This document shows, one piece after another, positions 26,005-36,988 of a stretch of DNA of 64,000 bases; the first letter of the stretch is position 1, and every line of letters starts with the position of its first letter. Below the pieces are notes generated by a model. It was given only the letters and a program-made list of their open reading frames with translations. It was not told the origin of the DNA and made no database searches. Made by a program: the position numbers and the translations under genes. Source of the stretch: a virus (taxonomy: Duplodnaviria; Heunggongvirae; Uroviricota; Caudoviricetes); the IMG/VR virus record IMGVR_UViG_3300033146_004404, positions 1 to 64,000 of that record, one strand, 5' to 3'.

Positions 26005-26063
26005 TAGGCACTTACAGCAATCAAAACTATAATTAGAAAGAATGTAAAAAGCAAAGTGTCTAG
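26005..26063 (+). ncRNA. conserved inter-tRNA hairpin element (copy)
   Basis: tAGGCACTtACAGCAATCAAA...AGTGTCTAg; one copy of a recurring element. Confidence 0.4.
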
Positions 26064-26070
26064 TTTTTAT

Positions 26071-26143
26071 GCCGTTTTAGCTCAGTAGGTAGAGCGTCTG
26101 TTTGAAGAGCAGAGCGTCTCCGGTTCAATTCCGGGAGGCGGCA
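26071..26143 (+). tRNA. tRNA-Phe (GAA)
   Basis: Acceptor gccgttt/aggcggc (with G-U pairs), D-arm tagctcagtaggtagagc, anticodon loop ttGAAga, T-arm tccgg-ttcaatt-ccggg. Confidence 0.75.
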
Positions 26144-26146
26144 AAT

Positions 26147-26217
26147 GGGGTTATAATATAACGGAATTATGGAAGACCTGCAATCTTCATATCGGGGTTC
26201 AACTCCCCGTAGCTCCA
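26147..26217 (+). tRNA. tRNA-Ala (UGC)
   Basis: Acceptor ggggtta/tagctcc with a G3:U70 wobble (the Ala identity element), anticodon loop ccTGCaa, T-arm cgggg-ttcaact-ccccg. Confidence 0.7.
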
Positions 26218-26224
26218 TAAACGT

Positions 26225-26296
26225 AGCGGGGTTGAGGAATTGGAACCTCATAAGGCTCATAACCCTATCATGCAAGTTCGAGTCTTGCCTCCGCCT
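26225..26296 (+). tRNA. tRNA with CAU anticodon (Met or Ile2)
   Basis: D-stem gagg/cctc, anticodon loop ctCATaa, T-arm gcaag-ttcgagt-cttgc. A1:C72 mismatch. Confidence 0.5.
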
Positions 26297-26298
26297 TT

Positions 26299-26358
26299 TA
26301 GACATTAACAGCAATCAAAAAAAACCAAACTGTTAATTTGAAAATAAAAAATGTCTAG
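26299..26358 (+). ncRNA. conserved inter-tRNA hairpin element (copy)
   Basis: TAGACATTAACAGCAATCAAA...ATGTCTAG. Confidence 0.4.
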
Positions 26359-26460
26359 TTTTACTGAAAGTTAGTGTCGGGACGAGAGAGCACAGTAGTA
26401 TGAAAATACTTCCAAGCCTTCTCCCAGACTTTTTCTGTAGTCTTAAAAGAACAGTAACAT

Positions 26461-26534
26461 TTCCTTGAAGCTTATCTGGTAAAGCGCCAAATCGTTAATT
26501 TGGAGTCTTCTTGGTTCGAGTCCAAGCAGGGGAG
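26461..26534 (+). tRNA. tRNA, anticodon probably GUU (Asn)
   Basis: Acceptor ttccttg/cagggga (all paired including G-U), D-stem gctt/aagc, anticodon stem ccaaa/tttgg with loop tcGTTaa, T-arm cttgg-ttcgagt-ccaag. Confidence 0.5.
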
Positions 26535-26674
26535 AAAGCTGAATTTTGAGTAAGGTCGCTACGAAGAACAACTCTAAAACAAAAACAAAAAGGAGAAGCT
26601 ATGAAATTCACATAGGTAAAACCGCCTTAACTGCTATATATAAATGAATAATTTATATATAGGAGAATGAAAAG

Positions 26675-27037
26675 ATGAATGAAGTGATAATGAAAAATAC
26701 TGAAATTAATTATGTAGTAAGAGATTCGATAAGAGAGTTAAAAAAGGATTTAAAGCTTTTATCTGTTAAGATTAGAGAATTTAAAAGAATTAGGGATACC
26801 TCTAAGAACATTGATGAAGTAGCCAGCTGTATGTCAGAGCTTGTAAATATAAGAGAATCTTATAGACTATGTCACATTCTTTACTGTTTAATAAGAGGTA
26901 GAAAATATCTGGAAGTTGAAAACAAGGTAGCTTATGGGAATAAGGGTTCTCTTTCAGCTTTGAAATGCAAATGCTTACAATATAATGGACTTGATCTTGA
27001 TAGTTGCACTGTCAAGCAACTAGAGGGGTTGAGATAA
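26675..27037 (+). CDS. hypothetical protein
   Basis: ORF with RBS (taggagaatgaaaag) then ATG. Confidence 0.45.
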   Translation: MNEVIMKNTEINYVVRDSIRELKKDLKLLSVKIREFKRIRDTSKNIDEVASCMSELVNIRESYRLCHILYCLIRGRKYLEVENKVAYGNKGSLSALKCKCLQYNGLDLDSCTVKQLEGLR

Positions 27038-27039
27038 AG

Positions 27040-34603: not shown

Positions 34604-34967
34604 CAGTTCTTCAAGCTCATTTGTGATAGTAATAGATGAAACTATCGTTGAAAAAGTAGAAGAGAATCTCTCCCCTCTCAGTAAAGCAATCTTTGATAGA
34701 ATCAAGAAAACGAAATACTCATTCACATCTGTGGATTGGATAGATGGAGAATATGGTGACTTATTTGACGGTGAAGTAAAAGATGTCATTGAAGGCGACA
34801 TCACATTCAAGGCAGATCTTGATAAAGCTATTACTGAGTCAGATCGTGAAGACTTTCAAGACTGGGAATATCTTAGCGAAGTACAAAATACTTTTTCAAA
34901 AGAGCTCTTTGCTGCCTTGAAACAAGAAGATAAATGCTTTTATATCATAAGCAAAACTAATATGTAA
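34575..34967 (+). CDS. tandem paralog 1 with conserved N-terminus MKKRIGFVSNSSSSSF
   Basis: Shares an identical 16-aa N-terminus with the next three genes. Followed by 'VIVIDE', then a divergent acidic body. Confidence 0.6.
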   Translation: MKKRIGFVSNSSSSSFVIVIDETIVEKVEENLSPLSKAIFDRIKKTKYSFTSVDWIDGEYGDLFDGEVKDVIEGDITFKADLDKAITESDREDFQDWEYLSEVQNTFSKELFAALKQEDKCFYIISKTNM

Positions 34968-34977
34968 AGGAGAATAA

Positions 34978-35265
34978 ATGAAAAAAAGAATAGGATTTGT
35001 AAGTAACAGCTCATCTAGCTCTTTCTTTATTTTTATAGAAAGCGAAAAAGGACTTCCAGCGAATGAAGCTATTGCTGAGCTTCTAAGAGATGATGATATG
35101 GATGAAGATGACTGTATCAGATACGGAAAAGAACTCAGTGAAAGTATAAGAAATCGAAGAGAAGGAAAATTCATAGTTCAAGAAATTGGAGTGGAATATG
35201 ACGCTGAAAAAACTGCAGTGCAGATCTGCGAACTACTTAACGCCCCTTACTCTATAGGAGAATAA
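34978..35265 (+). CDS. tandem paralog 2 with conserved N-terminus MKKRIGFVSNSSSSSF
   Basis: GGAGAATAA RBS; N-terminus identical to the other paralogs, then 'FIFIESE', then an acidic body. Confidence 0.6.
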   Translation: MKKRIGFVSNSSSSSFFIFIESEKGLPANEAIAELLRDDDMDEDDCIRYGKELSESIRNRREGKFIVQEIGVEYDAEKTAVQICELLNAPYSIGE

Positions 35266-35266
35266 G

Positions 35267-35674
35267 ATGAAAAAAAGAATAGGTTTTGTAAGTAACAGTT
35301 CAAGTTCTTCTTTCTGTATTTATGGATATGAAATTTCAGGTATCTATACGTTAGCTGAATCTCTCATAGAGAGCGATAAAGCAAAAACGCTTTTAGCAGA
35401 AGCTCTTGGAGAAAAAAATTCTTCAAAAAGTGCAAAAGAACTATTTGAAGAATTAAAAGAGAAAGAAGGCGCTTCAGAAGCTTTATACGCCCTCGGAATA
35501 GATAGTGTTATAGATGGTGAATCTAACTATGTTTATCTCGGCAGAGACTACAGAAGCTTAAGAGATGAAGAAACAGGTCTTGAATTCAGAAGGGCAGCGT
35601 TTGATTGCGTAGAAGAATTTTTTAGTTTTAAAGGTAAAACTGCAGGATATATTTGTGAGGTGATTTACTCATGA
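35267..35674 (+). CDS. tandem paralog 3 with conserved N-terminus MKKRIGFVSNSSSSSF
   Basis: N-terminus identical, then 'CIYGYE', then a divergent body. Confidence 0.6.
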   Translation: MKKRIGFVSNSSSSSFCIYGYEISGIYTLAESLIESDKAKTLLAEALGEKNSSKSAKELFEELKEKEGASEALYALGIDSVIDGESNYVYLGRDYRSLRDEETGLEFRRAAFDCVEEFFSFKGKTAGYICEVIYS

Positions 35675-36189
35675 AAAAAAGAAGGGGTTTTGTAAGTAAT
35701 AGTAGTTCAAGTTCATTCATTTGCGAAGTTTGCGGAGAGGCTGAATCTGGCTATGATATGAGTCTAGCTGATGCAGGTTTTTATGAGTGTGAAGAAGGTC
35801 ATGTATTTTGCATAGATCATATAGACTTCTCTATAGATTCACCTCCTCTTGAGATAAAAAAGGTTGTGATAGCAAAATTCAAGGTGCATCAAAATTATGA
35901 TTTACCATGGCTAGATCGCAGAGGAGACCAGAAAGAAAGAATATTAAAATTCATAGAAGAGCATGATGACGAATATTTTGAAACAGAATTTGAAGAAGAA
36001 ATGATGTCAGGATATGGTATTCCTAAAGAGGCTTGCCCAATCTGTACTATGAAGGAAATTGGTGATAGCGATGTGCTGTCATATATACTACTTAAGAGTA
36101 CAGGAAATAAAGAATCTTTTAAGAATGAAATTCGTGAAAGATTTTCTTCATATAGAGAGTTTAGAAAGCATTTGACAGAAAAAGAATAA
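35671..36189 (+). CDS. tandem paralog 4 (MKKRRGFVSNSSSSSF) with Cys-rich body
   Basis: N-terminus differs by I5R; the body has CEVC...C...H...C and CPIC clusters (possible Zn binding). Its 3' end overlaps promoter copy 18. Confidence 0.6.
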   Translation: MKKRRGFVSNSSSSSFICEVCGEAESGYDMSLADAGFYECEEGHVFCIDHIDFSIDSPPLEIKKVVIAKFKVHQNYDLPWLDRRGDQKERILKFIEEHDDEYFETEFEEEMMSGYGIPKEACPICTMKEIGDSDVLSYILLKSTGNKESFKNEIRERFSSYREFRKHLTEKE

Positions 36190-36200
36190 TATGGTATAAT
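36172..36200 (+). promoter_or_regulatory. consensus early promoter copy 18
   Basis: TTGACAgaaaaagaataatatggTATAAT, overlapping the 3' end of paralog 4; precedes the HNH gene. Confidence 0.7.
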
Positions 36201-36258
36201 TAATGTATAAGGAAAACAAACTTATACATTAATTTTAGAAAAATAAGGAGGTAACAAC

Positions 36259-36894
36259 TTGGATGCTAATATTGAAAGAGTGCTTGTTTTAAACAGTTCT
36301 TACATCCCTATTTATTTAAGCACTCCAGCTAAAGCGATTAAGAAATTAATCAAAAAGAAGGCTGAAGTTATCACTATTATAGATAACTATTTCTTGAATC
36401 ATCCCTATGAAGATTGGATTAAATACTCAAAAAGTAAAAAGCTTGAATGGGATGAAACAAAAAAATATAGGTACTGGAATCTGGAGCATGGAGTCCTAGG
36501 AATCCCTAAGATAATAAGGCTAAAAAGCTATTCTAAAATCCCAGTTAAACTTAGAATAAATAGAAAAAATATTTTACTTAGAGATAATTATATTTGTACT
36601 TACTGTAATAAAAAGAAACAGATTGGAGAACTCAACGTAGATCATATTGAGCCAAAATCTAAAGGTGGTAAAAATACATGGGAGAATCTATCTTGTTCTT
36701 GCGTGAAATGTAACTCTCATAAGAGAGACAGGACACCTAAAGAAGCAGGAATGAAACTTCATTACGCTCCAAAGAAACCAACAATACATCTCTTGTTTAA
36801 AAAATATGCTGCATATTTTTTTGACTTTAGATACACAGAATGGAATAGCTTATTTCCAGAAGAGTTCCTTGCAGAGTTAGAATACGTTAGATAA
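36259..36894 (+). CDS. HNH endonuclease
   Basis: 'CTYCNKKKQIGELNVDHIEPKSKGGKNTWENLSCSCVKCNSHK' HNH motif; TTG start 7 nt after AAGGAGG. Confidence 0.7.
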   Translation: MDANIERVLVLNSSYIPIYLSTPAKAIKKLIKKKAEVITIIDNYFLNHPYEDWIKYSKSKKLEWDETKKYRYWNLEHGVLGIPKIIRLKSYSKIPVKLRINRKNILLRDNYICTYCNKKKQIGELNVDHIEPKSKGGKNTWENLSCSCVKCNSHKRDRTPKEAGMKLHYAPKKPTIHLLFKKYAAYFFDFRYTEWNSLFPEEFLAELEYVR

Positions 36895-36897
36895 AAG

Positions 36898-36926
36898 TTG
36901 ACAAAAAAAGAATAATATGGTATAAT
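36898..36926 (+). promoter_or_regulatory. consensus early promoter copy 19
   Basis: Identical core; its transcript starts with the conserved hairpin element, then the vWA gene at 37031. Confidence 0.75.
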
Positions 36927-36931
36927 ATATA

Positions 36932-36988
36932 TAGACACGAACAGCAAATCAAAATAATCTATTGTAAGAGAGAAAAGAAGGTGTCTAG
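36932..36988 (+). ncRNA. conserved hairpin element (copy) forming the 5' leader of the vWA gene
   Basis: TAGACACgAACAGCAAATCAAA...GGTGTCTAG, beginning about 6 nt after the -10 of promoter copy 19. Confidence 0.4.

Follow-up and report, generated by a model that had tools for sequence, protein, structure and literature searches.

Positions 1 to 64,000 of the IMG/VR virus record IMGVR_UViG_3300033146_004404 (Caudoviricetes), a stretch of 64,000 nucleotides (nt) referred to here as the window, contain an RNA-repair island that holds genes for an RtcB RNA ligase, an Rnl2-type RNA ligase, more than 20 transfer RNAs (tRNAs) and a transfer-messenger RNA (tmRNA). Within this region recurs a hairpin element, of which we analysed five copies, all on the + strand, comprising four short forms (copies 1 to 4) and one long form of 118 nt (Table 1). 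Copy 4 lies in front of a gene whose product is predicted to have the fold of Ro60. The element is an RNA structure under selection that is linked to this gene in phages and bacteria, and we propose that its copies are probably Y-RNA-like partners of the encoded protein.

The original prediction for this DNA, made from its letters, had described four full copies closed by a 7-bp stem with a conserved motif in the 5' part of the loop, together with a partial copy at 23125-23150. The four full copies are present on the + strand as described, with copy 3 ending at 31984, and a regular expression of the stem plus ACAGCA recovers these four short copies and none on the opposite strand. The supposed partial copy is in fact the 5' half of a complete 118-nt copy, 23127-23244, with the closing strand GTGTCGA followed by G. 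Looser scans of the window, without ACAGC or with any 7-mer as stem, gave no further copies, as chance matches swamp such scans in AT-rich DNA.

Three copies sit directly 3' of a tRNA or a tRNA-like minihelix, as had been noted. Copies 1 and 2 each begin 2 nt past a tRNA (tRNA-Thr, ending at 26002, and tRNA-Met, ending at 26296), copy 1 being followed by tRNA-Phe from 26070, while copy 3 follows the minihelix, which scores below threshold as a tRNA in Rfam (24.2 bits, E 0.28). The Rnl2-like ligase gene precedes copy 3 and tRNA-Cys (31997-32068) follows it after 12 nt, and the long form begins 7 nt past tRNA-Gln (23049-23119). Copy 4 had been placed at the start of the transcript upstream of a large gene with a von Willebrand factor A (vWA) domain, and this placement holds: it begins 6 nt past the -10 hexamer of a full-consensus promoter, whose predicted transcription start coincides with the first base of the copy or is no more than about 2 nt from it. 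Eight promoters of this kind, each with a 12/12 match (TTGACA-17-TATAAT, with an upstream TG), lie between 22868 and 36926, all on the + strand, and split the tRNA/RNA-repair region into short transcription units.

Table 1. Hairpin elements of the window, with associated features and context genes
Feature	Position	Strand	Description
Long form	23127-23244	+	Stem TTGACAC (23127-23133)/GTGTCGA (23237-23243); conserved G at 23244; ACAGCAA at 23136-23142
Long-form interior	T-arm ~23175-23191; closed acceptor-like hairpin ~23192-23208; D-arm ~23211-23225	+	Permuted tRNA-like domain
Copy 1, short form	26005-26063	+	Stem TAGGCAC/GTGTCTA with one G-U pair, then G
Copy 2, short form	26299-26358	+	Stem TAGACAT/ATGTCTA, then G
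Copy 3, short form	31938-31984	+	Stem TAGACAT/ATGTCTA, then G
Copy 4, short form	36932-36988	+	Stem TAGACAC/GTGTCTA, then G; 42 nt before the ATG of the Ro60-like gene
Ro60-like protein gene (predicted fold)	37031-38503	+	490 amino acids; Pfam DUF2828 and DUF7788; PHROG 850 'RNA-binding protein'; follows copy 4
Sigma-70-type promoter	36898-36926	+	TTGACA-17-TATAAT, TG before the -10; 12/12 consensus match
tRNA-like minihelix	31896-31937	+	Acceptor-like stem AGAGGTG/CACCTCT and T-arm; directly 5' of copy 3
RtcB RNA ligase gene	20563-21855	+	Pfam RtcB, E 6e-55; context
Rnl2-type RNA ligase gene	30937-31890	+	Pfam RNA_ligase and T4_Rnl2_C; directly upstream of the minihelix and copy 3; context

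The hairpin handle and the loops it carries

An exact search of IMG/VR with the 21-nt motif of the window gave only three matches, all chance occurrences inside coding sequence, and relatives were therefore reached via homologs of the protein encoded at 37031-38503 rather than via the DNA motif. A search of IMG/VR loci with the single protein found no match, an alignment query being needed to recover them, and a near-identity search among isolated phages found no near relative of the window. The sets obtained comprise 80 IMG/VR loci, 80 bacterial and archaeal genome loci, three isolated phages and close relatives, for 165 loci overall. The anchors used for detection were kept few to avoid circularity, and consisted of the outer five stem pairs, ACAGC and a G after the 3' strand.

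With these anchors, the viral loci and the window yielded 147 distinct copies on the strand of the gene, against two on the opposite strand and three per shuffle, and the bacterial and archaeal loci yielded 149 copies against one. Stem positions 6 and 7, which were not used in detection, are both paired in 128 of the 147 viral and 137 of the 149 genomic copies (about 14% by chance) in 16 different dinucleotide combinations; pairing at position 8, seen in only 67 of 147 copies, is close to the level of chance. ACAGC is followed by two bases that are A in 92% and 88% of copies, which extends the motif to ACAGCAA. The resulting consensus, which we call the handle, is a 7-bp stem (WAGRYNN/NNRYCUW), the bases NN, a single-stranded ACAGCAA after the 5' strand and a G after the 3' strand; this G follows directly in essentially every credible copy, the later scans having required it. 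Of the features originally described, the 7-bp stem stands, while the longer loop motif AACAGCAATCAAA is specific to the phage of the window and ACAGCAA is the motif common to its relatives.

The stem covaries. In a 143-row alignment 96.9% of the stem cells are paired, compared with 77% in shuffled rows and 27-48% when the partners are slid, and 213 cells carry double changes where 73 are expected; the covariation score was reached by none of 500 shuffles. At pair 1, 78 rows have A-U and 64 have U-A, and pair 6 occurs as A-U, G-C, U-A, C-G and G-U. RNAalifold, applied to an independent MAFFT alignment of 43 short forms, returned the same seven pairs and no others, five of them with compensatory changes, and in a GC-rich mycobacteriophage the otherwise invariant pair 2 switches from A-U to G-C (UGGACNN/NNGUCCA). 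In the two closest contigs, L004 and L006 (59-62% protein identity), the element lies between a consensus promoter and the gene and shows compensatory stem changes, with a stem of CAAGACAC/GTGTCTTG in the L004 copy at 9920-9979, and stems of TAGGCAC/GTGTCTA and AAGACGT/ACGTCTT in the tandem L006 copies at 9840-9891 and 9901-9972. The handle is conserved from Mycobacterium phages to E. coli phages. G-U pairs occur on the transcribed strand only, and together with the one-sided ACAGCAA they point to a function in RNA of the gene strand and not in DNA. The element is an RNA structure under selection, and chance is excluded as its origin. No family in Rfam 15 matches the short forms at E ≤ 10, and none covers the handle.

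An intrinsic terminator was called at none of the five window copies. The loops of the elements span 32 to more than 100 nt, and after the 3' G only the first position is T-rich (68%), followed by values of 46% and 39%, with no U-tract; loop size and the missing U-tract rule out a terminator.

The lengths of the elements are bimodal, with medians of about 63 and 124 nt, and the loops differ accordingly in content. A T-arm hairpin is present in 41 of the 147 viral copies. In the long form of the window, the T-arm, closed acceptor and D-arm are all paired in a local match to the Rfam model of the Y RNA YrlA at 23168-23228 (23.7 bits, E 0.0038 in a 191-nt scan), and an Rfam tRNA match of 31.9 bits lies inside the element at 23141-23199. 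Long forms elsewhere also reach YrlA at sub-threshold level through this tRNA-like core, with 38.2 bits (E 1.9e-7, full model) at L015, 36.9 and 32.3 bits at L058, 33.6 bits at L040 and 37.7 bits in mycobacteriophage Lolly9. A collinear tRNA-like body, with a weak acceptor that continues into the handle, is enclosed by 11 copies. None of these is a tRNA by definition: the short forms have no complete cloverleaf, and in the long forms the parts are permuted or a weak acceptor passes into the handle. A mechanically called open reading frame (ORF) of 326 amino acids, 23147-24127, begins inside the long-form RNA and crosses its tRNA-like domain; its one family match (DUF7566) is confined to residues 195-321, and its true start is probably well downstream of 23244.

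Many short forms carry a different module. Among 167 copies of at most 90 nt, an inner hairpin with a 7-nt loop is found in 105, compared with about 51 when the loops are shuffled, and the loop signature YU-NNN-R-N, mostly as CU-NNN-AA, is found in 57, compared with 3-7. The stems of these look-alikes of anticodon stem-loops are mostly exactly 5 bp, and no enrichment is seen for loops of 4, 5, 6 or 8 nt. The most frequent loop sequences are CUUUUAA, CUGUUAA, CUGUCAA/C, CUUCUAA and CUGUAAA, which are anticodon loops found in the tRNAs for Lys, Asn, Asp, Arg and Tyr. Overall, about one quarter of the copies contain a tRNA-like body and about one third an anticodon stem-loop mimic, and the rest have no recognised module.

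Copy 2 of the window belongs to the second class. Its loop holds at 26326-26340 the mimic CAAA-CUGUUAA-UUUG (wider form CCAAA-CUGUUAA-UUUGA), with a loop of Asn type, and this is similar to the anticodon arm CCAAA-UCGUUAA-UUUGG of the tRNA-Asn that the phage itself encodes about 100 nt downstream (26461-26534). A wider comparison of mimics with tRNAs of the same locus was confounded, as all 17 of its 17 matches were tRNA-like bodies inside elements; the Asn case in the window is the sole suggestive one of a mimic that copies a tRNA of its own phage. The tRNA at 26461-26534 was missed by ARAGORN and scores 47.5 bits in Rfam; its anticodon is GUU (Asn), and its loop UCGUUAA has C33 in place of the near-universal U. 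For phage tRNAs with altered anticodon loops, an escape from anticodon nucleases has been proposed (PMC10264068).

A Ro60-like protein gene and its linkage to the elements

The original prediction had recognised the vWA domain of the product of 37031-38503 and missed its likeness to Ro60, as it had missed the YrlA-type domain in the supposed partial copy. An AlphaFold2 model built from an alignment of 36 homologs has a predicted local distance difference test score of 85.7 and a predicted template-modelling (TM) score of 0.81. When it was compared by Foldseek with the PDB, the top 12 matches were all full-length Ro60/TROVE structures (Xenopus, human and the Ro60 of Thermus phage phiLo; E 2e-8 to 4e-5, TM scores 0.42-0.60, about 510-585 aligned columns), and below them came only isolated vWA domains. 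The residues D290, S292 and S294 of the MIDAS (metal ion-dependent adhesion site; DxSxS) are invariant across the 36 homologs. On the basis of this model, the product has the Ro60 fold, with a TROVE ring and a vWA domain that carries a MIDAS site.

Homologs of the DUF2828 type occur in at least 710 isolated phages, among them Felix O1-like, Listeria P100-like, KVP40-like and Campylobacter phages and the cluster-L mycobacteriophages, whose homologs are deposited as 'Ro-like RNA binding protein'. They are also found in many bacterial genomes, and archaeal and eukaryotic assemblies are among the database matches. The mycobacteriophage homologs that we sampled all come from genomes of 70-77 kb and none from a 155-kb genome, the size typical of the cluster C mycobacteriophages, the group of the published phage example ET08. 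Homologs with 53-54% identity have been deposited from the eukaryote Tritrichomonas musculus, on Mb-scale contigs, and the papers found on 'DUF2828' concern plants; the family reaches beyond phages and bacteria.

The elements track this gene. Copies that end within 300 nt upstream of it make up 51 of the 147 in the viral set; in the genomic set a copy is present at 67 of 80 loci, lies within 500 nt upstream of the gene at 57 and ends within 150 nt of the start codon at 41. A reciprocal test started from the motif, with a 14-base version of its 5' part searched against IMG/VR and a few kb fetched around each of 80 loci: the gene was present beside 12 of 28 closed hairpins compared with 2 of 52 unclosed, presumably chance, matches. 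The arrangement varies. Tandem arrays reach eight copies over more than 1 kb, interspersed with tRNAs, and neighbouring units usually have non-complementary stems (for example those at 9840 and 9901 in L006). Copies lie upstream of the gene in Listeria phage WIL-1, downstream of it in mycobacteriophage Lolly9, downstream and between tRNAs in a Felix O1-like coliphage, and as an array on the strand opposite to the gene in a Brachyspira element. With such arrays, opposite-strand and downstream copies, the elements behave as independent genes and not as leaders alone.

Three of these loci show further features. In the Brachyspira-associated locus L288 (1-6241), two tandem units of about 3.1 kb each contain a DUF2828 gene together with some 1.2 kb of DNA free of genes, in which four to five tandem opposite-strand elements carry the variant handle AAGGCGC-ATTA-ACAGCU ... 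GUGCCUUG; an identical protein is found on more than 50 short contigs, and the unit may be a small repeated or circular element. In WIL-1 (L294 1-6000; NC_025440.1 838-6838), about 30 tiny coding sequences of 21-70 codons, annotated as 'hypothetical protein', precede the Ro60-like gene, and many of them are probably spurious, because three RNA elements lie there (5665-5926). The units of the array at L004 8133-8369 (equal to L005 3305-3541) can also be read in another register as 'tRNAs' of about 110 nt that score 42-43 bits in Rfam, in which the anticodon region is replaced by the 3' strand, 2-3 nt and the 5' strand with ACAGCAA; this array may have two alternative folds.

Comparison with Y RNAs and competing explanations

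In bacteria and phages the genes of Y RNAs lie beside that of Ro60, frequently as several copies, and each species has at least one Y RNA that mimics tRNA (PMC4201824). Their ends pair into a stem that is bound by Ro60, and a module tethers Ro60 to proteins such as PNPase (PMC4201824, PMC12135203). The canonical Ro60-binding motif is GGUCCGA within a bulged helix in animals and GNCGAAN0-1G in bacteria (PMC4201824). The Ro60 of Thermus phage phiLo has been solved with a Y-RNA-like partner (PMC12135203), and rsr, yrlA/B and rtcBA of Salmonella are reported to be linked in one operon (PMC7790460). The elements of the window share with Y RNAs the adjacency to, or co-occurrence with, a gene for a protein of predicted Ro60 fold, the terminal stem formed from both ends and the presence of a tRNA-like member in the genome (23127-23244). 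Their stem shows the consensus WAGRYNN-NN-ACAGCAA in place of the conserved Ro60-binding sequence, and the protein, with its predicted helical-repeat ring and MIDAS-bearing vWA domain, agrees with TROVE in fold and not in sequence.

One of the closest likenesses is to YrlA (RF02553), the partner of Ro60/Rsr. It too stands beside a gene of the Ro60 fold in multiple copies, with a terminal stem and a link to RtcB-type repair, and it holds within a large internal region a permuted tRNA-like domain (T-arm, closed acceptor, D-arm) like that of the long form in the window. It differs in its GNCGAAN0-1G site, where the elements here have a WAGRYNN stem, ACAGCAA and a 3' G, and in its protein, which here is of the DUF2828 type and not TROVE by sequence. 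The short forms resemble YrlB of Salmonella and Yrl1/Yrl2 of phiLo (PMC12135203), which likewise lack a full tRNA-like domain and lie directly upstream of the Ro60 gene, and some copies resemble Yrn1 of Deinococcus (PMC4201824), whose collinear tRNA-like body has an acceptor end that runs into the terminal stem. Unlike these RNAs, the elements have a handle without a CGAA motif, and many short forms show the look-alike of a 5-bp/7-nt anticodon stem-loop, which we did not find described for Y RNAs in the literature examined. There are also parallels to phage tRNAs that evade or replace the targets of anticodon nucleases (PMC10264068, PMC11555353), namely large tRNA sets, RNA ligases and altered anticodon loops; those tRNAs are functional, whereas the elements are not tRNAs and present only tRNA parts on a conserved handle.

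Two of the functions first suggested for the element, a small stable RNA like the T4 band C/D species and a protein-binding regulatory site, pointed in the right direction, and what has emerged is an RNA module tightly linked to one protein gene. The T4 species 1 and 2 (band C/D) are small RNAs in the phage tRNA cluster, presumably released by tRNA-processing enzymes. The elements resemble them in being embedded in such a cluster, and T4 is not known to carry a DUF2828 gene.

The element was identified by the Ro60-like nature of the downstream gene and by the YrlA-type tRNA-like domain of the long form. As the measured features fit the known pattern of Y RNAs, we propose the handle as a binding site and the loops as tRNA-mimic effector modules, and we consider it likely that the elements are Y-RNA-like partner RNAs of the protein encoded at 37031-38503, that is, the counterpart of Y RNAs for the divergent DUF2828 family. 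The handle, comprising the 7-bp stem of both ends, ACAGCAA and the unpaired 3' G, would be the site recognised by the protein, and the variable loop would be an exchangeable module that mimics a tRNA or part of one, in the form of a permuted tRNA body like that of YrlA, a collinear tRNA-like body like that of Yrn1, or an anticodon stem-loop on its own. Four of the window copies would be made within tRNA-containing transcripts and freed by the ribonucleases (RNases) P and Z that trim the tRNAs, and the fifth, copy 4, would lie at the 5' end of the mRNA that carries the Ro60-like gene. The candidate ribonucleoprotein may act with RtcB, Rnl2, the tRNA set and the tmRNA to maintain a usable pool of tRNAs during infection; it could link the Ro-like ring to enzymes that handle tRNAs or to nucleases, or offer them tRNA look-alikes, in a role such as tRNA surveillance, repair or evasion of defence.

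If this proposal is correct, a family now labelled 'hypothetical', 'vWFA' or 'DUF2828', which appears far commoner in phages than canonical Ro60, gains a partner RNA and a working hypothesis that existing tools could test in model phages. The Ro60/Y-RNA paradigm would gain a different recognition module, and tRNA mimicry could be piecemeal, down to the anticodon arm. Annotation would gain as well, since tiny spurious ORFs now fill such regions (as in WIL-1, and at the ORF from 23147 in the window). From the sequence data, the protein subfamily, the handle and the modules made of an anticodon arm only appear to be new within the Ro60/Y-RNA kind. The survey of Y RNAs by Chen et al. (2014; PMC4201824) was limited to genomes in which a TROVE protein was annotated, and in the literature examined we did not find DUF2828 mentioned in the context of Ro60 or Y RNAs; the RNA itself may have been described earlier.

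Several findings weigh against the proposal that these are Y-RNA-like partners. Binding by the protein is something that we infer, and the handle has neither GGUCCGA nor GNCGAAN0-1G; CGAA turns up in it solely as a chance result of NN = GA, for instance in copy 4. By sequence, the protein matches only DUF2828 and DUF7788 in Pfam at E ≤ 10, and not TROVE, and phmmer and profile searches of the PDB sequences, solved Ro60 chains included, came back empty. All YrlA scores (23.7-38.2 bits) fall far below the Rfam gathering threshold of 69 bits, which no long form reaches, and simple detectors recognise no module in 134 of 265 copies, including window copies 1, 3 and 4. Under the strict pattern, 13 of the 80 genomic loci and about one quarter of the viral loci have no copy. 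Folding energies of the single hairpins are weak (z -1.0 to -3.0), and minimum-free-energy folding is uninformative, missing the conserved stem of the long form; with single-sequence folding this weak, the case rests on comparative evidence. Some of the linkage to the gene could arise because both features reside in tRNA regions, although the evidence from the bacterial loci and from the motif-first test speaks against it.

A bolder form of the proposal, which we offer as tentative, takes DUF2828 as a second Ro60-like family whose handle displays interchangeable tRNA pieces, including free-standing anticodon stem-loops, on a particle that serves as a tRNA decoy or tRNA-damage sensor in the conflict between phage and host. 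Such a particle might soak up tRNA-cleaving defence enzymes or pass broken tRNAs to RtcB and Rnl2; the loops mimicked are those of Lys, Asn, Asp, Tyr and Arg tRNAs, which are known targets of anticodon nucleases.

The elements could alternatively be cis-acting operators in the mRNA leader of the Ro60-like gene, bound by its protein or by another factor so that translation or stability of the mRNA is controlled, with the other copies acting as titrating decoys or persisting as relics. We regard this as unlikely. Copy 4 is indeed the first element of the transcript of the gene, and the placement within 150 nt of the start codon at 41 of 80 genomic loci, with the same layout in L004 and L006, is what an operator would show; but arrays of three to eight different copies extend over more than 1 kb with tRNAs between them, copies lie downstream in Felix O1-like and cluster-L phages and, in Brachyspira, on the opposite strand, four of the five copies in the window belong to other transcription units at a distance of 5-14 kb, and the tRNA-like loop bodies have no obvious role in such control. 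An operator needs the same protein-RNA contact, so it can coexist with Y-RNA-like partnership.

It is similarly doubtful that the elements are stand-alone tRNA mimics that decoy host tRNA-cleaving nucleases, with the handle read by another factor or serving stability and the Ro60-like gene a fellow traveller. The anticodon-loop mimics and tRNA-like bodies in the loops, the position in tRNA arrays and the precedent of phage tRNAs that counter anticodon nucleases (PMC10264068, PMC11555353) would suit such decoys. However, the linkage to the gene is also seen in bacterial loci that have few tRNAs nearby or none, with copies accumulated directly upstream of the gene, the handle that is conserved from Mycobacterium to E. 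coli phages travels with the gene, and the gene product has the predicted fold of a protein known to bind such RNAs.

The function that the original prediction named first, a signal in polycistronic tRNA precursors at which a host RNase (III, E, P or Z) cleaves or separates them, is very unlikely as the primary one. Copies 1 to 3 and the long form do abut tRNAs or a tRNA-like helix, and 39 of the 147 copies lie within 20 nt of a tRNA, yet 73% of the elements have no adjacent tRNA, most tRNAs of the arrays have no element, and only three or four of the more than 20 window tRNAs have a copy. RNase III needs roughly two helical turns, and against a test of about 20 bp or more of duplex the 7-bp stem is too short. 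Conservation of ACAGCAA and of the handle extends to phages whose hosts are unrelated and have differing RNases, a pattern that suits a co-inherited protein partner better than a host RNase site, and the link to the Ro60-like gene would go unexplained, as copies track the gene even in bacterial loci with few tRNAs. Least probable of all is a DNA-level element (a protein-binding palindrome, a target of recombination or homing endonucleases, or a miniature mobile repeat), for which the inverted-repeat ends, the multiple copies and an HNH endonuclease gene nearby in the window (36259-36894), L004 and L006 might speak, but which is contradicted by a strand bias of about 100:1 relative to the gene, by G-T pairs that are A-C mismatches on the other strand, by arms that vary freely with complementarity kept (the opposite of a sequence-specific DNA site), by the asymmetric ACAGCAA on one arm only and by flanks that differ between copies with no target-site duplication obvious by eye.

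Other features of the RNA-repair island

The tmRNA of the window, 32523-32810, scores 72.9 bits in Rfam and encodes the tag peptide DETETYYAQVA; tmRNAs are also present in related loci, at L040 17319-17619 and at the start of L005. The tRNA at 27434-27508 has the anticodon CTA and is labelled 'Pyl' by ARAGORN. It is of the amber-suppressor type and may point to recoding or suppression of TAG in the phage, in which case ORF calls made with the standard code could be split. At 24160-24235, ARAGORN reports a 'tRNA-???' with a two-base anticodon, which scores 34 bits as a tRNA in Rfam and may be another tRNA-like or degenerate tRNA. The island also contains a phosphoribosyl pyrophosphate synthetase gene (29934-30887) and a radical SAM/SPASM gene (33283-34374), and radical SAM and HNH genes are similarly placed in relatives (L004).

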